Virus record (IMG/VR): IMGVR_UViG_2634166457_000018
Location: 1 to 14,807 of that record
DNA: 14,807 bases
Source: a virus
Taxonomy: Duplodnaviria > Heunggongvirae > Uroviricota > Caudoviricetes
Direction: 5' to 3' (one strand)
The notes beneath the pieces were generated by a model. It was not told the origin of the DNA and did no database searches. It saw nothing but the letters and a program-made list of their open reading frames with translations. Positions within the stretch are counted from its first letter, which is position 1. Each line of letters opens with the position of its first letter. Of the stretch, positions 4,712 through 14,807 are shown in pieces. A program made the position numbers and the translations under genes.

Positions 4712-4892
4712 CGATTTCCTCCAGATCAGGAGCGATTACCTGATATCCCGCTTTCTTTGCTATCCATAAGAAGGTATCCATGCTGGCAATCATCTCGTTA
4801 TTGTGAACTTTACGGGTATTTATTACCTGACCATTTTCAATCGTCATAATGAGCTGTACTTTTTCGTGTATAAGAGGGGATAAATCAGACAT
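4683..4892 (-). CDS. Hypothetical protein (69 aa)
   Basis: Strong SD GGAGGA upstream; start overlaps the stop of the upstream 119-aa gene (TGATG); lies in an AT-rich block. Confidence 0.55.
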   Translation of the reverse strand: MSDLSPLIHEKVQLIMTIENGQVINTRKVHNNEMIASMDTFLWIAKKAGYQVIAPDLEEIGDINSNTNS

Positions 4893-5251
4893 CAGTTAAT
4901 TCCTCCACTGATATATTTCTCTTTTACGTAGTCAACAACCTCTTTTAAAAGGCCGTCCACTATCAGTTTCCCTGATTCAGTGAGATATTCCGTGTGTTGA
5001 TTAATACCGATGGCATTCTGGTATGCGGTACGGATTGTTGCTTCTCCTTCCGTCCGTCCATATTCAACACGGGTAAGACCCTCAAATCGTAATAACAACT
5101 GGTTCATGAACTGTTCAGTTATTTCTATCGTTGTTATTTCTCCGTCCGGGAGGTCAACGACGAGCAGATTACTACCTGTTTTACGTTGCATCCGCCGGAG
5201 TGCCGCTGTTACCATGCGGCGACGATCTTTATAAATGGTTGTACATGCCAT
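4892..5251 (-). CDS. Hypothetical protein (119 aa)
   Basis: ORF in an AT-rich block, translationally coupled to the 69-aa gene downstream. Confidence 0.6.
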   Translation of the reverse strand: MACTTIYKDRRRMVTAALRRMQRKTGSNLLVVDLPDGEITTIEITEQFMNQLLLRFEGLTRVEYGRTEGEATIRTAYQNAIGINQHTEYLTESGKLIVDGLLKEVVDYVKEKYISGGIN

Positions 5252-5816: not shown

Positions 5817-6245
5817 TTATGCTTCCTCCTGATTTTGTTTATAAGCATCAGTCAATAACAACATTGGATCACAGCCAAGAACATTAGCCAGAGGGATAAG
5901 CATGCTGATGGTTGGTTCGTACTCTCCGCTTTCCCACTGGATGATAATTTCTTCATCGAGATCGAGCAGCCTGGCGAGTTCGGCGGTTGTTAAGCCGCAG
6001 GCTTCGCGTTGGGTGCGGATTTTATTTGGTTGTTTGTTGATTATGTGATTATGTAATGGATAAGTAGCAGACAGGGCGTATTCATGAACAAACTCCATGA
6101 CTTCAAACCCCAATTCTTTAGAGCGATCACCATCAATTAAATGGAAAGTACGAGCAGCACCTACCAGATTTGCAATATTTAATGCAAAGGATTCTTTTTC
6201 GAAGTGGTTTAAGTTCGATATCTCAGTGGTTGTCAGATCTTTCAT
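5817..6245 (-). CDS. Two-domain protein with C-terminal XRE-type helix-turn-helix (142 aa), first gene of the cI-adjacent cassette
   Basis: C-terminal segment IRTQREACGLTTAELARLLDLDEEIIIQWESGEYEPTISMLIPLANVLGCDP fits the Cro/C1 (XRE) HTH pattern; the N-terminal 75 aa match nothing I recognise. Confidence 0.7.
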   Translation of the reverse strand: MKDLTTTEISNLNHFEKESFALNIANLVGAARTFHLIDGDRSKELGFEVMEFVHEYALSATYPLHNHIINKQPNKIRTQREACGLTTAELARLLDLDEEIIIQWESGEYEPTISMLIPLANVLGCDPMLLLTDAYKQNQEEA

Positions 6246-6391
6246 TGAATCACTATCAATTTAAAATTAACAATAAATCAAGTTAAAATTGATGGTGTGA
6301 TGTTAGATCTTGATTGATGGAATTGTCAAGAAAAAATTGATTTCTGCGTCTCTTTTACTTGATTTGTAAATTTTTCTTTAATAATCAATAA
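6246..6391. promoter_or_regulatory. Leftward promoter/operator region downstream of cI (PL/OL-like): sigma70-like promoter on the minus strand plus TTGAT-type operator repeats
   Basis: Minus-strand -35 TTGACA (plus coords 6324-6329), 18-nt spacer, -10 TAACAT (6300-6305); imperfect palindrome ATCAAGTTAAAATTGAT at 6277-6293 over the predicted transcript start; 13-mer TTTTACTTGATTT at 6353-6365 identical to one in the cI/cro intergenic region. Confidence 0.45.
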
Positions 6392-7081
6392 TTAACCAAA
6401 TCTATTTATATTGAATGGAACAGATGAGATTACCTTCGATTGGATATAAAGCAGCTCAAGAGCATCTTTTTCAATGCTCCAGGATTGGTAATTTGGGTTA
6501 TCAGATAACACCATGATTTTACTTCCTATCTTTTGTAATCTTTTGACGTAGCATTCACCATCAAAGCAAAAAGCATAAATGCCATCACCATCAAAGTAAT
6601 TCACTGTTTTATCGAGAAAAAGAAGATCTCCTGGGGCTATTGTTGGAGCCATACTATCTCCTCTTGCGTTACCAATCTCTATGTTTTGAAATGCTCTATT
6701 GCCAACAAGGCGACGGGCATATTCAGGATCAAGCTCGATTGAGCGAACTACATCGATAAAGTCCCCACGGACATGTGTTCCATCGCCGCAACTAAACTCA
6801 ACATCGAGCACGTTAAAGACCACACTGTCAGTTCTTGCTTGATGTTTTTCCTTTGAAGAGAACTGCCGTGACGTGATTTCTCCTAAAAACCACGATTGCG
6901 GATAACCACTTATTTCGGATAACTGGGCAAGCCGGTTTCCCCTTGGAAATGTTTTTCCTGTTGTCCAGTACTGTACGGACTGTGCGCTGACACCTAACTT
7001 TCGGGCCAGCTCTGCTTGGCTCCAGCCTTTCTCCTGTAGCAGCTTTGTAATTCGATTTTCAGTGCTCTTTAAGTTTTTCAT
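6392..7081 (-). CDS. cI: CI-type phage repressor (N-terminal HTH, C-terminal S24 LexA-like peptidase domain; 229 aa)
   Basis: N-terminal HTH (LLQEKGWSQAELARKLGVSAQSVQYW); C-terminal GDSMAPTI with downstream VKRL, matching the Ser/Lys dyad pattern of LexA/CI autopeptidases; divergent from a Cro-like gene; SD AAGGA upstream. Confidence 0.9.
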   Translation of the reverse strand: MKNLKSTENRITKLLQEKGWSQAELARKLGVSAQSVQYWTTGKTFPRGNRLAQLSEISGYPQSWFLGEITSRQFSSKEKHQARTDSVVFNVLDVEFSCGDGTHVRGDFIDVVRSIELDPEYARRLVGNRAFQNIEIGNARGDSMAPTIAPGDLLFLDKTVNYFDGDGIYAFCFDGECYVKRLQKIGSKIMVLSDNPNYQSWSIEKDALELLYIQSKVISSVPFNINRFG

Positions 7082-7215
7082 TGTTAATCCTTGCTGGTTA
7101 CTTGGTTTCGATAAATTTTTACTTGATTTTAGTGTATTCGATCTTTTGTGGACTTGTATGTTAATTTAAACTTGATGTAATCTTGAATTTATAAAGTTTA
7201 GATTGGTGGGTTGCG
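7082..7215. promoter_or_regulatory. Divergent cI/cro control region (OR with PRM/PR-like promoters) carrying repeated ACTTGAT-type operator motifs
   Basis: AT-rich 134-bp spacer between divergent repressor genes; repeats ACTTGGT (7099), ACTTGAT (7121, 7171), TCTTGAA (7181); 13-mer TTTTACTTGATTT at 7117-7129. Exact -35/-10 hexamers not confidently placed. Confidence 0.6.
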
Positions 7216-7488
7216 ATGAAAGGAAATGATTACGACGCACTTCGTGAGCTAATTGCACAAAATGCCATAGCGCGAAATCTAGGCGTTACGCCGCAAGCTG
7301 TGAACCAATGGTTTTCAAAAAGAACAATTCCTGCTCGTTTCGTCTTGCGTGTATGTGAAGTTGTGGAATGGAAAGTTACTCCTCATGGGTTAAGACCAGA
7401 TCTTTATCCCCATCCTGAAGATGCAATCCCTGATTTGTTACGTAGAAGTCACACAGCCACAAATGCGGCAGTTATGAAAAACGAATGA
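7216..7488 (+). CDS. cro: Cro-like HTH regulator (YdaS-type; 90 aa)
   Basis: First rightward gene of the immunity region; HTH ARNLGVTPQAVNQW and a downstream LRPDLYP motif, which I recall as typical of YdaS-like Cro proteins; SD GGTGGG upstream. Confidence 0.7.
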   Translation: MKGNDYDALRELIAQNAIARNLGVTPQAVNQWFSKRTIPARFVLRVCEVVEWKVTPHGLRPDLYPHPEDAIPDLLRRSHTATNAAVMKNE

Positions 7489-8523: not shown

Positions 8524-10182
8524 ATGCAGCTGACAATCACGCCGAATTTTGCACAGGAGCGAGCGCTAAACATGTTGCGCCGTGACTGGAAGGCAAACGA
8601 CACCTTCATGGTTTACTCGCCAACAGGTAGCGGTAAAACGGGTCTGGCAGCCTTCATAGTTGCTGGTTTTGTCAGCCGTGGTATGCGTGTTCTGTTCTGT
8701 GTTCCGTACACCATCCTGATTGGTCAGACGGCTAATCGGTTCGTGCAGTATGGTTTACCTGGAGATGAAATCGGTTATATCTGGGCGGATCACCCGAACT
8801 ACGATCCGGACCGGAAAATTCAGATTGCCAGCGCTGACACGCTTATTCGTCGTGTTTTTCCTGAAAATATCGATCTGCTGATTATCGACGAAGCGCACCT
8901 GCGTAAAAAACGCATCCTGAAGGATATCGAACGTCTGCGCGGCAAAGGCGTAAAGGTGATTGGCCTGTCGGGTACTCCGTTTTCTCCGTTCCTGGGCAAA
9001 TACTATGACCGACTGATTAAGCCGACCACCATCGGCGAGTTAATCCAGCGTGGCGATCTGAGTAAATACGAATTTTACGCGCCAACTAAGCCGGATCTGA
9101 AAGGTGTTAAAACCACATCTTCGCTTGAGTACGGCCGCGATTACAACGAAACACAGCTGGCTGAAATCATGTGCGGCTCTACGCTGGTGGGCGACATCGT
9201 ACAGAACTGGCTGGAGAATGGTCGGGATCTACCTACCATCGCTTTCTGCGTCAACGTAGCTCACGCCAATTATCTGACAATCCAGTTTAACCTGGCGGGT
9301 GTTAACGCTGAGGTAATGACCGCAGACACTCCGGTAGATGAGCGCCAGACCATCATTCACCGCTTTGAAACTGGTGCAACGAAAATCATCGTTAGTGTGG
9401 GCGTTCTGGTGGCCGGCTTTGATAGTGACGTTCGTTGCATCATCTACGCCAGGCCAACAAAAAGCGAAATTCGCTGGTTGCAGGCACTCGGGCGTGGGCT
9501 GCGCACCGCACCGGGTAAAGAGTCCTGCCTTATCTTCGATCACAGCGGCACCGTGCACCGTCTGGGTTATCCGGATTCAATCGAGTACGACGATCTTCCC
9601 GGTAAGTCTGACGGCATGGAGGAAAGCGCGCGCCGCGCAGTTGAGGAACGGGCCGAAAAACTGCCACATGAATGCCCTCAATGCCACTACATGAAGCCAG
9701 CTGGCGTCTATGTTTGCCCTAAATGTGGACACAAGCCGCTGCGAGGTGAAGATGTTGATACTGACACTAGCCGCAAACTTAATAAGCTGGGTAAAAATCA
9801 GCATCAGTCGACGAAGGCAGAGAAACAGTCCTGGTGGAGTCAGATCAAATTTTATCAGCGCCAGCGTGCTTCGCTGGGGCGTCCAGTCAGTGATGGATGG
9901 TGTACTCACACTTTCAGGGAGAAATTCGGTGAATGGCCTGATGGGTTGAGCAGTTTCCCGATGGAAATAAGCCCAGAGGTAAGTAACTACATCAAACACA
10001 AGCTGATTCGGTTTGCCAAAGGCCGTCAGCGGACGCAGAGAACTATAGAAAAATTGCAGGCAACGATTCCTCTGTCTCAGGAACGAGGTGAGCGAAGCGA
10101 GATGCCAATAGGCACTGAGGCTTGGCGCATCATGCAAGCAAAGCAACAACTCCAGAAAAATATAAACAGTTTGAGTCAGTAA
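8524..10182 (+). CDS. Superfamily-2 (DEAD/DEAH-type) helicase with C-terminal Cys4 zinc ribbon (552 aa), phage replication helicase
   Basis: Walker A SPTGSGKTG, DEAH box LLIIDEAH, motif III GLSGTP, motif VI LQALGRGLR; C-terminal CPQC...CPKC. Confidence 0.85.
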   Translation: MQLTITPNFAQERALNMLRRDWKANDTFMVYSPTGSGKTGLAAFIVAGFVSRGMRVLFCVPYTILIGQTANRFVQYGLPGDEIGYIWADHPNYDPDRKIQIASADTLIRRVFPENIDLLIIDEAHLRKKRILKDIERLRGKGVKVIGLSGTPFSPFLGKYYDRLIKPTTIGELIQRGDLSKYEFYAPTKPDLKGVKTTSSLEYGRDYNETQLAEIMCGSTLVGDIVQNWLENGRDLPTIAFCVNVAHANYLTIQFNLAGVNAEVMTADTPVDERQTIIHRFETGATKIIVSVGVLVAGFDSDVRCIIYARPTKSEIRWLQALGRGLRTAPGKESCLIFDHSGTVHRLGYPDSIEYDDLPGKSDGMEESARRAVEERAEKLPHECPQCHYMKPAGVYVCPKCGHKPLRGEDVDTDTSRKLNKLGKNQHQSTKAEKQSWWSQIKFYQRQRASLGRPVSDGWCTHTFREKFGEWPDGLSSFPMEISPEVSNYIKHKLIRFAKGRQRTQRTIEKLQATIPLSQERGERSEMPIGTEAWRIMQAKQQLQKNINSLSQ

Positions 10183-10183
10183 G

Positions 10184-11152
10184 ATGAAAACAGCAGCTGC
10201 AGCGAAAGGCCGCTGGCCTGAAATATTAGAGCACTTCGGCTTGCCGCCGATAACAGGAAAAAATCACTTCAAGGGTGAATGCCCGGTATGCGGTGCACGT
10301 GGCAAGTTCCGAATTGATGACCGCGACGGTGCAGGAACGTGGATCTGTGTATGTGGTAGTGGCGATGGTATGAAACTTGTCACCCTGACACAGGCGAAGC
10401 CATTTAACGAGATTTGTACCGAAATAGACCGCCTGATCGGTAATGATTACCAACGGGTTAAAATCCCGGTAACCAGCAGCGCCACCAGCTTACGCAAACG
10501 GGTATTGAGCAAGTTTTCAAAACTGGAGGCACTGCGTGGTACATCCGGCGCAGCGTATCTTAATTCTCGTGGAATATTCAGTCTTCCTGCTGAGGCGATC
10601 CGGTTCAATGCCAGGCAGAGACACAACGGGAGTGTGTTCCAGTCTCTTTATTCACTTGCTACGGACGATAAAGGGGAGTTGTGCTATCTGCACCAGACTC
10701 TGCTTGATGGTGATAAAAAAGCAGATATCGGTAGCAGTGCAAAGCGCCTCAAATCCCTGCAGGAAGATAACTATTTGGATCACGCTCGTTCTGTAGCTAT
10801 CCGCATGTTTCCTGTTGCCAGCACTCTGGGTATCGCCGAAGGCATCGAAACAGCGCTGTCAGCGCACCAGATTTATAACGTGAACACCTGGGCAACCATT
10901 AACAGCGGCTTTATGAAAAAGTTCCGCGTACCAGCTGGTGTTCTGCACCTGATTATTTTTGCCGACCGTGACGAGAACAGCGCCACCGGGCTGGCTGCGG
11001 CTTGCGAATGTGCTCATGCCAATCTGATGGCAAAGAATGACCTGCAGCGCGTGAGCGTGTACTGGCCGGATCACGATGATTTCAACAATATGCTCATGAA
11101 CGGTGATCAGGTTCGAGAGCTGGTTTTCCATAAGAAAAAGGCGGTTGCGTAA
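10184..11152 (+). CDS. DNA primase-like protein: N-terminal zinc-ribbon plus Toprim domain (322 aa)
   Basis: N-terminal CPVCGARGKFRIDDRDGAGTWICVCG (primase-type zinc ribbon); Toprim-like acidic motifs IAEGIETALS and LIIFADRDEN; start 1 nt after helicase stop. Confidence 0.75.
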   Translation: MKTAAAAKGRWPEILEHFGLPPITGKNHFKGECPVCGARGKFRIDDRDGAGTWICVCGSGDGMKLVTLTQAKPFNEICTEIDRLIGNDYQRVKIPVTSSATSLRKRVLSKFSKLEALRGTSGAAYLNSRGIFSLPAEAIRFNARQRHNGSVFQSLYSLATDDKGELCYLHQTLLDGDKKADIGSSAKRLKSLQEDNYLDHARSVAIRMFPVASTLGIAEGIETALSAHQIYNVNTWATINSGFMKKFRVPAGVLHLIIFADRDENSATGLAAACECAHANLMAKNDLQRVSVYWPDHDDFNNMLMNGDQVRELVFHKKKAVA

Positions 11153-12009
11153 TGCGTACTGATAACAACGAACATAAAGCACTATTCACCATCCCGACGG
11201 CAGCGTACAGCTCCGCCATCGCAAACATCAAGCCCCTGCCAGAGCAACGGAGAATCACCGGGCATAAGCAGACTGATGCTTATCTTTGGGTGCTGGAGGT
11301 TATCCGTCTGAACGAACCCGCACATCTGGATGCTGCTGAGGCTGCGCTGGTGAAAATTAAAATTTCCCCAAAAGAGGCTCAGGAACGCTATTCGCGTTAT
11401 CTGCTGGCGAATGGTGGTGATCCTTTCCAGATTGCTTTCGGTACCATCGGCATGGATAACCCGGCACAGGCAATCAGGATCGCCCGGGAGAATATCAAAA
11501 AAGCAGCATCAGTCAGGGCTACGTTTGGTAGCTATGAAGCAGCACTCGAAGATGTGGAAGCCGAGCGAGTGATCAAGTCTTCCCAGAAATTTATCGACGA
11601 TCATCTCTGGGGCTGGACTGCAGCCGAGAAGAAAGCGGGCAGAATTGATGGCATCCGTATGAATGAAATTGATGATCAGCGTCGTGCATATGTTGATGGC
11701 TATCGTGATGTACTGCCAGAGCCTCATACATTGTCAGACGTAGTTCGTGAGTTTGTTTACTGGGACTGGCTCTACAGTGTTCGCCACACTGCGACTAAAG
11801 AACAGGGCGATGAGTATGGTTACTCTGAGCATCACGAATCGGTATATGACCGCGAGCGCTACCTTGAAAAATTGCTGATGACCATCAAACCGGTGACACG
11901 GGCTGAAGCCGTGGAGGTGTGTCGTTGGTTTTTGGCAAGCGGAAAGGGCGAATATATGAAAGACAATGGCGAGGCGGTTATTCTTAATCTGGTTGGGGAG
12001 TGTGAATAA
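11152..12009 (+). CDS. Hypothetical protein (285 aa), translationally coupled to the primase
   Basis: Start overlaps the primase stop (TAATG); no recognisable motif. Confidence 0.65.
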   Translation: MRTDNNEHKALFTIPTAAYSSAIANIKPLPEQRRITGHKQTDAYLWVLEVIRLNEPAHLDAAEAALVKIKISPKEAQERYSRYLLANGGDPFQIAFGTIGMDNPAQAIRIARENIKKAASVRATFGSYEAALEDVEAERVIKSSQKFIDDHLWGWTAAEKKAGRIDGIRMNEIDDQRRAYVDGYRDVLPEPHTLSDVVREFVYWDWLYSVRHTATKEQGDEYGYSEHHESVYDRERYLEKLLMTIKPVTRAEAVEVCRWFLASGKGEYMKDNGEAVILNLVGECE

Positions 12010-12824
12010 TGAAGCTTGAGGCATCGCTAAAATACTTCAGTCCTCAGGGAATGTATATCGGCGACGATGTGAAAGGAACCTCTCCGGAACGTCTTACAGG
12101 CACCGATGTTATGGCGGCTATTGGTACCACCAGCAGCCGAGCGCGATTTGGTCTGGCGGCTTTCTTTGGGAAGGCCGGTATCAGCAAGACTGATGAGCAG
12201 ATGGCAGTCCAGGCGCTTGCGCGTCACGCGATGGAAATTGCACCGAAGAATGTGCGTAAAGCAGCTGGTGGTGAATTTGGGTGGTGTATGCTGGTACTGG
12301 CGCAGTTTGCCTTTGCTGAGTACTCTCGCTCAGCTGCTACCAGCAGCGTCTGCACTATATGCAAAGGAACCGGTAGAACCACACGGACTCAAATTACACG
12401 AAAGGTTTCTTTCCCGTGTGGACCGCCTCCGTACTGGGCCAGCCGTTCTCGCGCTGTTCGGCCATCAGATTGGGAGCATTGGACGGAGATAATGGAGAGT
12501 GTGCCTGCAGTCTGTGATGTCTGCGAAGGCAGGGGAGCAATAAGCGCACGTTGCCGTTGTGGTGGAAAAGGGAAAATTCTAGATCGTATTGCGACAAAAG
12601 AGCAAGGTATGCCAGTATTTAAAACCTGCGAGCGTTGTAGTGGAAAGGGATTCGTATCTATCAAATCAGCTAATGTTCATCGAGCTATTCAAATATACAT
12701 TCCCGATCTGCACCAGTCTTCATGGTCGCGCAATTGGAAACCATTCTATGAAAAATTGGTTGATATCCTGCATCAAGGTGAGCGGCATGCGGCTGGAGCA
12801 TTTGAGAAGGCAACGAGTTACTGA
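12009..12824 (+). CDS. Zinc-finger protein with DnaJ-like CxxCxGxG repeats (271 aa); candidate late-gene antiterminator (Q-position protein)
   Basis: Start overlaps upstream stop (TAATG); three CxxCxGxG motifs (CTICKGTG, CDVCEGRG, CERCSGKG) plus CRCGGKG; immediately followed by a promoter and intrinsic terminator resembling PR'/tR'. The Q assignment is positional. Confidence 0.6.
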   Translation: MKLEASLKYFSPQGMYIGDDVKGTSPERLTGTDVMAAIGTTSSRARFGLAAFFGKAGISKTDEQMAVQALARHAMEIAPKNVRKAAGGEFGWCMLVLAQFAFAEYSRSAATSSVCTICKGTGRTTRTQITRKVSFPCGPPPYWASRSRAVRPSDWEHWTEIMESVPAVCDVCEGRGAISARCRCGGKGKILDRIATKEQGMPVFKTCERCSGKGFVSIKSANVHRAIQIYIPDLHQSSWSRNWKPFYEKLVDILHQGERHAAGAFEKATSY

Positions 12825-12850
12825 TCTGAATAGATCTGGGGGAGAGATTT

Positions 12851-12893
12851 TTGAGCAACTGACTTGACTTTGCATAAAATTGTCTTGTACTAT
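12851..12893 (+). promoter_or_regulatory. Candidate late promoter (PR'-like) with a downstream -10-like element
   Basis: -35 TTGAGC (12851-12856), 18-nt spacer, -10 TAAAAT (12875-12880); alternative overlapping parse TTGACT (12864-12869) N18 TACTAT (12888-12893). The TACTAT could act as a sigma-dependent pause element as in lambda qut. Confidence 0.4.
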
Positions 12894-12934
12894 TTTGAGC
12901 ATGGGTTTTAGTGCCAAAATAAAAATTACCACAG

Positions 12935-12957
12935 AACCCGCCTTACAGCGGGTTTTT
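12935..12957 (+). terminator. Rho-independent terminator (tR'-like), also at the 3' end of the convergent 314-aa gene
   Basis: 7-bp stem AACCCGC/GCGGGTT with 6-nt loop CTTACA followed by a T5 run; lies 40-70 nt downstream of the candidate late promoter. Confidence 0.7.
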
Positions 12958-12959
12958 AA

Positions 12960-13904
12960 TTATGGTAAATTTTCCATAAATTTCTTAAATAGTAATTTGT
13001 CTTTGTTGCTTACAGATTTCTGGATGTTAAGTAATGCGCGTAAAGGTTTAAGATTTTCTCTTGTTGCAAAAAACCTCGATTTTTCTAAGCGTTCCTGAAC
13101 AAAAATAAAGCGCTCTCTTAATCTTGAAACCTTTATTCCAAATGACAACACCTCTCTTTCAGTTAATTCATCTGGGTTGCATTTGTTTAATTTTTCCAGA
13201 ACCATTTTTATATCTCTTTCATAAAGAAGAGCAATGTCATAATCATTCAGCAAGCATTCAGGGTATTGTATTACCCCAATAAGTTCGTTTACGGTTTTGT
13301 TCTTATTGTTAACTTTCGGAGCTAAGTCGCTTGTTTGCTTTTGGGATATAATTTCGTCCAGTTCTAGCTCTTCTGTATTTTTTAATCTTGAGCGGAAAAC
13401 ACGCCCATCACCAGAAGCAGCCATCTTTTTCAATGTTTGATAAGCTGCACGCCCGATGATTTTAGGGTCTTTCATGTCAAGTATTCTATGAGCAACCTCA
13501 GTTAGTGATGGACGCCCAGATTCGATTTTGGCTTTGAGTTTGTAATAGCTAAAAATATCATCTTTTGCCTCTTTAAGTGCGGTAAGTAAGCGATGGAAAT
13601 CTGCTTTTCGGCAAAGTTCTATTGCTAAATTATCAAAGGCTATACCAAAAACATTAGTTCCACATACATGGCCGATATTCGTTTCAAATCCTTCTTTCGT
13701 AACTACCAGAAATCCCTTTTTATGCCCTTTGCGGCAATTTGATTTTCCACATGGAATTTCCTCTGGTAGGTCATCGTAGTAACCAAAAACGTCAGAGAGT
13801 TGCTGATCATTTAACTCTAATTTGGGATAGTAAGACTCTCTCGCCTGAATTTCTGCCCAGTCATTCACGCGAATAAAACTTTCGCCATTCTTGAGAAAAA
13901 TCAT
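12960..13904 (-). CDS. Hypothetical protein (314 aa) in an AT-rich island, antisense to late transcription (moron)
   Basis: Long minus-strand ORF with SD AAGGA 6 nt upstream of ATG; visibly AT-rich against GC-balanced neighbours; Lys/Glu-rich with N-terminal Cys/His cluster (CGKSNCRKGH...GHVCG). No family recognised. Confidence 0.75.
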   Translation of the reverse strand: MIFLKNGESFIRVNDWAEIQARESYYPKLELNDQQLSDVFGYYDDLPEEIPCGKSNCRKGHKKGFLVVTKEGFETNIGHVCGTNVFGIAFDNLAIELCRKADFHRLLTALKEAKDDIFSYYKLKAKIESGRPSLTEVAHRILDMKDPKIIGRAAYQTLKKMAASGDGRVFRSRLKNTEELELDEIISQKQTSDLAPKVNNKNKTVNELIGVIQYPECLLNDYDIALLYERDIKMVLEKLNKCNPDELTEREVLSFGIKVSRLRERFIFVQERLEKSRFFATRENLKPLRALLNIQKSVSNKDKLLFKKFMENLP

Positions 13905-14030
13905 ACTCGTCCTTACTGTGGTTAGATTTAAAGCATATCCATTTGATATTTAATCACTATTCTTTTTGTATTTCACCTAAAACCATTTTGTTTTCATGTT
14001 TAATGTGACTGATGTATCATCACTCCCCCA

Positions 14031-14102
14031 GCCATTTTAGCTAAATGATGAGAGCGAGTTATAATCGCCAGGTCGCTGGTTCAAGTCCAGCAAGGGCCAC
14101 CA
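14031..14102 (+). tRNA. tRNA-Ile-like element with degenerate 5' half (probable pseudo-tRNA or 3' tRNA fragment)
   Basis: The 3' part (about 14059-14102: ATAATCGCC AGGTCGCTGGTTCAAGTCCAGCAAGGGCCACCA) closely matches my recollection of the enterobacterial tRNA-Ile2 3' half, including T-arm and CCA. The upstream sequence cannot form a paired acceptor stem and the D-arm region is shortened; the inferred anticodon loop reads UAU. Confidence 0.5.
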
Positions 14103-14103
14103 A

Positions 14104-14180
14104 CCGTCACTAGCTCATCGGGATAGAGCATCAACCTTCTAAGTTGATGGTGCGGGGTTCGAGTCCTCGGTGACGGACCA
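14104..14180 (+). tRNA. tRNA-Arg (anticodon UCU)
   Basis: Manual cloverleaf: acceptor CCGTCAC/GTGACGG, D-stem GCTC/GAGC, anticodon stem TCAAC/GTTGA with loop CTTCTAA, T-arm CGGGG-TTCGAGT-CCTCG, discriminator A, encoded CCA; 77 nt. Begins with C1-G72, which is unusual. Confidence 0.75.
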
Positions 14181-14181
14181 T

Positions 14182-14256
<75 letters not shown>

Positions 14257-14539
14257 TGTGTTTTTTTTGTCTGCACAACAGGTAAGAGCATTCTCCCTTA
14301 TGGGGCCTGGCTTAAATGCATTGAGTGCTCTTTCCGTTGTGCTGAATTAAGCGAATGCCGGAAGCAGAACCGGATTACCAAATGCGCACGGGCGTCGTCG
14401 CCGCCCAGCAACAGCACAACCCCGACAGAGCCGTAGCCACTGGCTGTCATGAATTAATCAGTGACAGTTATGCTGCGGCCTTCTTTTTTCCCTTCCCGAT
14501 ATAAGAATTACGCCATCCGTTCCGTGCGGAGGTGAGGCT

Positions 14540-14626
14540 ATGAAATCCATGGATAAAATTTCAACGGGCATTGCCTACGGCACCTCCGCAGGCAGTGCTG
14601 GCTACTGGTTTTTACAGTGGCCATAG
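14540..14626 (+). CDS. Small Gly/Ala/Ser-rich peptide (28 aa, [28 protein letters not shown])
   Basis: ORF not in the supplied track; strong SD GGAGGTGAGG ending 5 nt before ATG; small-residue-rich segment could form a membrane helix. Confidence 0.35.
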
Positions 14627-14636
14627 GATAAATTCG

Positions 14637-14807
14637 ATGTCGATTAAACGTTATGATGTGGTCAGGGCAGCCTCGCCGTCAGATCTGGCGGAAAAACTGA
14701 CACACAAACTGAAAGAGGCCTGGCAGCCGTTTGGTAGTCTGGTGGACATAACTCCTTATACCCTGATGCAGGCGATTGCAGCAGAAGGTTATGTGGTGGT
14801 CAAGTAA
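14637..14807 (+). CDS. Hypothetical small protein (56 aa, MSIKRYDVVRAASPSDLAEKL...), first gene of the region after the tRNAs
   Basis: Track ORF 14571..14807 is likely over-extended; an internal ATG at 14637 has a plausible SD (AGGAT) and lies 10 nt after the stop of the preceding micro-ORF. The stop TAA is the last codon of the window. Confidence 0.5.
   Translation: MSIKRYDVVRAASPSDLAEKLTHKLKEAWQPFGSLVDITPYTLMQAIAAEGYVVVK

Follow-up and report, generated by a model that had tools for sequence, protein, structure and literature searches.

An ileZ-type tRNA-Ile pseudogene carrying a probable recombination junction between the late antiterminator and lysis genes of a lambdoid prophage

The tRNA-Ile-like element at positions 14030-14102 of the viral sequence considered here appears, from its alignment with intact homologues, to be a non-functional pseudogene of an ileZ-type tRNA-Ile2(CAT). 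We consider it probable, at roughly 80%, that such a gene first decayed and that homologous exchange inside the remnant then joined the decayed front part to a back part of another ancestry, so that the element is a chimera produced by ordinary phage mosaicism. In the following, we refer to the whole 14,807-nt stretch that was analysed as the window, and to loci opened in related genomes by L numbers where they have to be told apart.

By its gene content, the window comes from a lambdoid prophage and covers its early-right and late-regulatory regions. It contains a cI/Cro-type immunity region (5817-7488), genes for a helicase (8524-10182) and a primase (10184-11152), an ORF without an assigned function (11152-12009), and the gene for a 271-aa late antiterminator Q (12009-12824, plus strand; Pfam Antiterm, E=4.8e-52). 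Downstream of Q, a consensus scan identified a candidate pR'-like late promoter, TTGACT-18-TACTAT (12864-12893, plus strand). On its 3' side, a GC-rich hairpin, AACCCGC-CTTACA-GCGGGTT, followed by the T-run TTTAATT can be read by eye at about 12936-12958 as a candidate tR'-like terminator; a terminator scan made no call for this hairpin. Next comes ORF314 (12960-13904, minus strand; from the ORF listing, with a match to phrog_7003 at E=2e-116), which is antisense to late transcription and represents the "moron" of an AT-rich region: the GC content of 12750-14000 is 35-39%, compared with about 50% in the flanks. The tRNA cluster begins with a predicted, weakened promoter, TTTTCA-18-TATCAT (13991-14020, plus strand; consensus scan), and a C-rich stretch lies between this promoter and the tRNA element. 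The element itself, on the plus strand, consists of a decayed 5' part (14030-14065), delimited by alignments to intact ileZ, and an intact-type 3' part (14066-14102) that comprises the 3' strand of the anticodon stem, the variable loop, the T-arm, the 3' strand of the acceptor stem and CCA. It is followed, after a gap of 1 nt, by an intact tRNA-Arg with the anticodon TCT (14104-14180, plus strand; Rfam, 56.0 bits) and by an intact tRNA-Gly with the anticodon TCC (14182-14256, plus strand; Rfam, 62.8 bits), and further downstream by the start of a truncated holin gene (14541-14627) and a DUF1737 gene (14637-14807).

ARAGORN reported only tRNA-Arg(TCT) and tRNA-Gly(TCC) in this region and called no tRNA at 14031-14102, in agreement with the expectation that the element does not form a canonical cloverleaf. 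The Rfam tRNA model RF00005, used with Infernal, gave a full-length match at 14031-14099 with a score of 31.3 bits; the gathering score of this model is 29, and intact homologues of the element score 52-69 bits. In the Infernal alignment, the 5' strand of the anticodon stem is 4 nt short, and six of the 21 cloverleaf pairs are broken (two in the acceptor stem, one in the D-stem and three in the anticodon stem), while an intact homologue forms 20 of the 21. As a consequence of the 4-nt deletion, two of the five anticodon-stem pairs are left in Infernal's register; in the alternative register, as read from the sequence, it is the D-stem that is left without its 3' strand. Because of this deletion, the 5-bp anticodon stem and the 4-bp D-stem are never complete together. 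The free-energy fold of 14026-14102 is like that of shuffled sequence (z = -1.29). Among the copies in relatives, those of the Stx2e/i type have changes without compensation in both the T-stem and the 3' strand of the anticodon stem, and no compensatory pair changes were seen. The element is thus real, tRNA-derived and non-canonical.

These results bear out most of the description in the original prediction, namely a tRNA-Ile-like element with a conserved 3' part and a degenerate 5' part, located beside an AT-rich region and 1 nt from an intact tRNA-Arg. Three details need to be modified. The start was placed at 14031, and the homologous start is either 14030 or 14031. The 5' acceptor strand and D-arm were said to be unable to fold, which is right as far as the broken pairs are concerned, but the D-arm is recognisable and retains three of its four pairs. 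Finally, an Ile-Arg-Arg cluster was described as frequent at this place in lambdoid phages; the third gene here is tRNA-Gly(TCC), and the present cluster is therefore not Ile-Arg-Arg.

A tRNA cluster between Q and the lysis or stx genes is present in many lambdoid and Stx phages, and the ileZ-argN-argO cluster is typical of 933W-type Stx phages. We aligned the element against the first cluster tRNA, annotated as ileZ, of phages 606R7, Stx2_EH1910 and Stx2a_F765; in the last of these the whole cluster is annotated (AP012534). Intact ileZ is the 76-nt sequence GGCCCTTTAGCTCAGTGGTGAGAGCGAGCGACTCATAATCGCCAGGTCGCTGGTTCAAATCCAGCAAGGGCCACCA. Like ileZ of Stx2a_F765, the element is the first gene of a tRNA cluster located downstream of Q and upstream of the stx/lysis genes, and it shares with that gene a homologous promoter and the 76-nt backbone; the 3' halves of the two differ at a single T-loop base. 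Unlike it, the element lacks 4 nt of the anticodon stem, has some 6-7 substitutions and one insertion in the 5' half, carries the anticodon TAT rather than CAT, and is accompanied by Arg(TCT)-Gly(TCC) rather than by argN-argO. The substitutions in the 5' part relative to intact ileZ are G1>A, C5>A, C13>A, G15>A, G18>A and C34>T, of which the last converts the anticodon CAT into TAT, and the 1-nt insertion is a T added next to C5>A. The 4-nt deletion corresponds to the loss of one unit from the tandem AGCG-AGCG; in the allele of Ec10671, GAGAGCGACTCATAA, exactly one AGCG unit is gone. GC>AT changes account for six of seven substitutions in the 5' half. In total, about 8-9 mutational events separate the 5' ~36 nt from intact ileZ-type genes, whereas the 3' 37-41 nt differ from them by 0-1 base (97-100% identity), an asymmetry with a binomial p=0.013. 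The segment 14066-14102 is 100% identical to the 3' half of ileZ in a prophage of E. coli CFSAN029787, with the same T-loop G and 1-nt spacer, and from 14066 on the sequence differs from ileZ of the 606R7/EH1910/F765 type at one T-loop base only.

In the alignments, homology to intact ileZ loci also extends about 45 nt upstream of the element, through the promoter. The promoters of intact loci lie 9 nt 5' of the tRNA and read TTGCAA-17-TATTAT in L002 and TTGCAA-17-TATCAT in L018, and the TTTTCA-18-TATCAT of the window occupies the homologous position; consequently, the tRNA has no breakpoint at its 5' end. A search for other phage tRNAs as a source of the aberrant 5' half returned only the pseudogene of phage vB_EcoS-611R1 (hereafter 611R1) and one chance match. 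The 5' half appears not to be foreign: the alignments identify it as the homologous but mutated 5' half of ileZ.

The same decayed 5' half occurs in other phages. It is identical in 611R1 and in three prophages of the Stx2e/i type, while in Ec10671 two anticodon-loop bases differ; there CAT is kept, and the deletion is the same. The record of 611R1 (ON470586.1) already annotates the element as tRNA-Pseudo-TAT; this is the same pseudogene allele as in the window, with 98-100% identity over the spacer and the 5' half and with the same Q-ORF314 neighbours.

Decay is recurrent in the tRNA clusters of these phages, and the tRNAs in the second position of related clusters are also affected. The second tRNAs of L018 (2723-2796), L030 (43-116) and L031 (38-111) are dead, and ARAGORN reports them as "tRNA-???" with 2-nt anticodons; in L018, the anticodon loop has lost 2 nt, and L030/31 show a defect of this kind too. 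That of L037 (about 2698-2772) has a 2-nt gap in the anticodon loop, as read from the alignment, and in the Stx2e/i type (L005, about 4812-4895) the anticodon arm is scrambled. In YeP3 (L039, 3013-3087), a tRNA-Pseudo-TTG is annotated.

On the left-hand side, the spacer and the decayed 5' half are common to all the E. coli relatives; on the right-hand side, these are combined with three different parts. The first type, found in the window and in IMG/VR contig 648276671_000019, has the T-loop G, the 1-nt spacer, Arg(TCT) and Gly(TCC). The second, found in 611R1 and Ec10671, differs from the window in having the T-loop A, the 7-nt spacer TCACATA, and argN(TCG)-argO(TCT), as in 933W-type phages. 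In the third, which is that of the Stx2e/i-type prophages (STEC308, STEC276 and CFIA), the second tRNA is dead and one intact Arg(TCT) precedes stx2; here the 3' half of the element contains 10-11 uncompensated changes, including two broken T-stem pairs. Variation across phage groups and subtypes is known for the tRNAs encoded between q and stx (PMC7366253), and only general statements of this kind were found when the literature was searched for ileZ or pseudo-tRNAs in Stx2e-type phages (PMC7366253).

Pairwise comparisons locate the change of ancestry inside the element. Between the window and 611R1, there are 2 differences in 106 positions on the left and 22 in 121 on the right (p=4.5e-5), that is, an increase from 2% to 18%. 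Between the window and the Stx2e type, the corresponding values are 11/171 and 11/37 (p=2e-4). The relationship is reversed with the intact Ile-Arg-Thr-Gly cluster of CFSAN029787, from which the window differs at 8 of 115 positions on the right and at 59 of 110 on the left, and the right-hand parts of 611R1 and Ec10671 differ from the ileZ-argN-argO cluster of F765 at 6 of 123 positions. Informative sites place the breakpoint of the window between 14060 and 14066 (72:4 on one side and 5:39 on the other; p=2e-21, uncorrected for the fact that the split was chosen as the best one). The split of informative sites gives the same interval, 14060-14066, for 611R1, and 14058-14060 for Ec10671. The junction of Ec10671 is no more than about 8 nt away from the deletion, which makes a small crossover target; alternatively, its allele may represent the ancestral state. 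The comparisons thus support a recombination junction inside the tRNA-Ile remnant, and homologous exchange within the remnant would be the simplest reading of its front/back asymmetry. By the same comparisons, the segment 14066-14102 of the window and the tRNAs downstream of it appear to have been acquired from a cluster of the Ile-Arg-Thr-Gly type.

The left-hand module consists of Q and ORF314 in the E. coli relatives that were inspected. The region 12300-12960 of the window, which covers the 3' part of Q and the promoter region downstream of it, has matches in 22 complete E. coli genomes, and ORF314 adjoins Q in all six of those inspected (L005-L008 were opened, and the others were judged by their listed features). 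Within this module, the 5' half of the element shows no difference in 36 positions between the window and the Stx2e/i type (L005-L007), whereas the adjacent 135 nt, comprising the start of ORF314 and the spacer, show 10-11 differences. Such invariance next to a spacer divergence of about 8% seems marginally unusual (p ~0.05, an estimate), and pure decay does not explain it.

Modules of lambdoid phages are exchanged at short conserved boundary sequences, as comparative genomics has revealed. The junction described here resembles such boundaries in that ancestry changes abruptly at a short segment shared by co-resident prophages. It differs from the usual case in that the shared segment is a tRNA remnant, so that exchange leaves no clean gene edge but a pseudogene of chimeric composition.

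An alternative to exchange is selection: the 3' half may be kept because it is required for the processing of tRNA-Arg by RNase P or RNase E, or because it forms a stable minihelix, while the 5' half decays freely. The uneven distribution of changes described above is in line with this, and so is the Stx2e/i type, in which the second tRNA is dead and the 3' half is decayed too, as would be expected if the 3' half served the neighbouring tRNA and nothing else. However, the variants of the 3' half co-vary with the type of the downstream cluster, each being that of the intact ileZ of the same cluster; for this reason exchange is needed, and conservation alone is insufficient. The jump in divergence between the window and 611R1 at the junction also speaks against selection, which we regard as an unlikely explanation.

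Some further observations were made at the right-hand end of the window. In comparison with the closest intact cluster, that of CFSAN029787 (Ile-Arg-Thr-Gly), the window lacks tRNA-Thr (L036, 2620-2702); the deletion of about 80 nt spans from CCA end to CCA end, and Arg and Gly are now 1 nt apart (14180-14182). The 3' acceptor strand of tRNA-Gly(TCC) (14245-14252) reads TGTCCGC in the window and TGCCCGC in L009, L036 and L002, which gives the window's tRNA-Gly a single G-T wobble pair in its acceptor stem. Downstream of the tRNA cluster, relatives contain the Rfam sRNA STnc100 (L001, 4653-4852; L008, 3427-3635), and some of them additionally contain the anti-sRNAs AgvB or AsxR; in 14260-14520 of the window, no sRNA match reached the Rfam gathering threshold. 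The segment 14324-14482 is about 91% identical to 44845-45003 of phage lambda. The holin reading frame stops after about 28 codons and is joined directly to the DUF1737 gene, with a breakpoint at about 14622-14626; a near-identical IMG/VR contig, L009, has a full-length holin, and the E. coli matches to the left and to the right of this breakpoint are different prophages. It is either a second mosaic or deletion junction or a sign of a lysis-defective prophage.

The original prediction attributed the loss of the 5' half to the AT-rich island: the moron would have been acquired by site-specific integration or illegitimate recombination within the tRNA-Ile gene, leaving an att-like duplication of the tRNA 3' end. 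Two observations favour this explanation. First, only about 125 nt separate the element from the AT-rich region. Second, the decayed allele is found only beside ORF314: the exact 5'-half sequence is next to ORF314 in all eight viral contigs that contain it, and the 22 complete E. coli genomes that closely match the allele all have it next to ORF314. In accordance with the prediction, the short element was not encountered without the island. The recombination part of the proposal is also partly right, since there is a junction inside the remnant, but insertion of the moron as its cause is contradicted by the following results.

Direct and inverted repeat searches detected no repeat of the tRNA 3' end within 12700-14400, and no copy of the 3' segment with up to three mismatches exists elsewhere in the whole window; in particular, the att-like repeat suspected near 12830 is not there. 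The island contains no integrase or recombinase, its single ORF having no Pfam, PADLOC or NCBIfam match. With neither a 3'-end copy nor a recombinase, the model of an att scar fails. Moreover, as described above, homology to intact ileZ loci runs through the 5' half and some 45 nt before it, with no breakpoint at the 5' end. Relatives that have the Q type of the window and lack ORF314, which would define the edges of the island, were not found at the DNA level; at the position of the island, the nearest other Q (66% aa identity, from a Klebsiella phage) is accompanied by unrelated small genes. Two 13-nt segments in inverted orientation (12836-12848, CTGGGGGAGAGAT; 14019-14031, ATCACTCCCCCAG), complementary at 12 of 13 positions, enclose pR', ORF314 and the spacer. 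This repeat is probably meaningless, about one being expected by chance in a 1.7-kb region according to our estimate.

In addition, ORF314 homologues exist beside intact tRNA genes. In L018, L027, L030/31 and L037, an intact tRNA(CAT) and a homologous spacer/promoter of about 124 nt lie beside an ORF314 homologue; the homologues in L018, L027 and L030/31 have 59-68% identity, and L037 is the prophage of E. coli MS 115-1 (NZ_CP146665). Four further E. coli genomes gave, like L037, a 75%-identity match over an annotated tRNA-Ile (at the level of matches). The MS 115-1 prophage and IMG/VR contig 2029527006_000023 are like the window in the order of Q, antisense ORF314 homologue, spacer with promoter, and tRNA, and unlike it in having an intact tRNA (69 bits in L018) and an ORF of only about 62% identity; their arrangement appears to represent the state before decay. 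Because divergent relatives keep the ORF314 homologue, the spacer, the promoter and an intact tRNA(CAT) together, the comparison indicates that ORF314 did not break the tRNA and that insertion of the moron was not what destroyed the 5' half. The ORF314 copies linked to the decayed allele are closely related (94-99% identical), and the association of the two would reflect linkage by descent and their 125-nt proximity, not causation. We therefore judge the insertion model very improbable.

ORF314 itself belongs to a small family, phrog_7003, whose function is unassigned, and no match to it was found in Pfam, PADLOC, NCBIfam or a PDB profile search. Its homologues fall into 13 clusters, of which the three named ones come from E. 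coli, Kluyvera and Ewingella. In most of the loci that were opened, the homologue is located on the opposite strand between Q and the lysis genes; in L028 and L029, there is no Q near it, and in L028, L032, L034 and L035 it occurs without any tRNA. Invariant Cys and His residues of the family are C52, C57, H61, H79 and C81, and the copy of L017 (3001-3942) contains an internal stop. An AlphaFold model based on 14 sequences had a mean pLDDT of 57 and a pTM of 0.33, which is too poor for a fold search. A protein-pattern scan for relatives of ORF314 in contigs from one genome per species gave none that was confirmed.

The least credible explanation is that the element functions as a non-canonical tRNA with an aberrant D-arm, whose UAU anticodon would read the rare codon AUA without TilS: it could point to the alternative register, which gives an anticodon arm AGCGA/TCGCC with the loop GUUAUAA and, as read from the sequence, retains U33, A37 and a 4-bp stem like the intact gene, to C34>T as the change that yields the one anticodon still reading AUA, and to the promoter-like site that is kept. 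However, this register makes the D-stem impossible, D-loop G18 is mutated, and two mismatches, of which one affects pair 1 or 2, weaken the acceptor stem. The element is not accepted by ARAGORN, and the annotation pipeline of ON470586 flags it as pseudo. The Ec10671 type keeps CAT together with the deletion while the T-stem of the Stx2e/i type is broken, so that no consistent structure is conserved, and D-arm-less tRNAs are not known to function in bacterial translation.

For the preferred reading, decay of an ileZ-type gene followed by exchange within it, we infer the following order of events from the observed homology, mutations, breakpoints and relatives with an intact tRNA. In the ancestor, a spacer of about 124 nt, in which the cluster had a sigma-70 promoter of its own, would have lain between ORF314 and an intact ileZ, an arrangement still present in the divergent relatives with an intact tRNA. 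In the lineage of the E. coli group, ileZ may have been inactivated by a slipped-strand deletion of 4 nt in the anticodon stem, to which point mutations biased toward GC>AT were added. Over about 40 nt, the remnant would have stayed identical to the functional ileZ genes of co-resident prophages, and homologous recombination inside it could repeatedly have replaced everything to the right. The expected products combine the old decayed front with a "fresh" back, as in the window with Arg(TCT)-Gly(TCC) and in 611R1 and Ec10671 with argN-argO; the fully decayed version in the Stx2e/i-type prophages would be a third product.

In its present state, the remnant probably forms the leader of the Arg-Gly transcript, made from the weakened promoter and by Q-dependent read-through, and would be removed by RNase P cleavage at the 5' end of tRNA-Arg. 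In evolution, it would then act passively, as a homology patch for swapping late-region modules. There is a very slim chance that it is not inert, and that, transcribed from its own promoter, its intact T-arm, acceptor strand and CCA yield a stable tRNA-like RNA. If so, this RNA might be a decoy against host defences that target tRNAs, a processing scaffold for tRNA-Arg, or a TilS-independent UAU decoder of AUA. Each of these roles would account for a 3' half that is always "fresh" and for a 5' half that, among the relatives examined, varies only at the two loop bases of Ec10671. The decay of the T-stem and the 3' half in the Stx2e/i-type relatives indicates that the structure is not maintained.

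The element was already annotated as a pseudogene, its setting is that of ordinary mosaicism, and no new mechanism is involved. Beyond annotation, where it should be labelled as a tRNA-Ile (ileZ-type) pseudogene, neither as a tRNA nor as an att scar, its importance is small. ORF314 is to be seen as an old resident of the gap between Q and the lysis genes in this phage group, not as a recent insertion into a tRNA gene. A dead tRNA gene is still a homology patch where lambdoid prophages swap late tRNA, toxin and lysis modules, and this is relevant for tracing the movement of stx-flanking regions between Q types.
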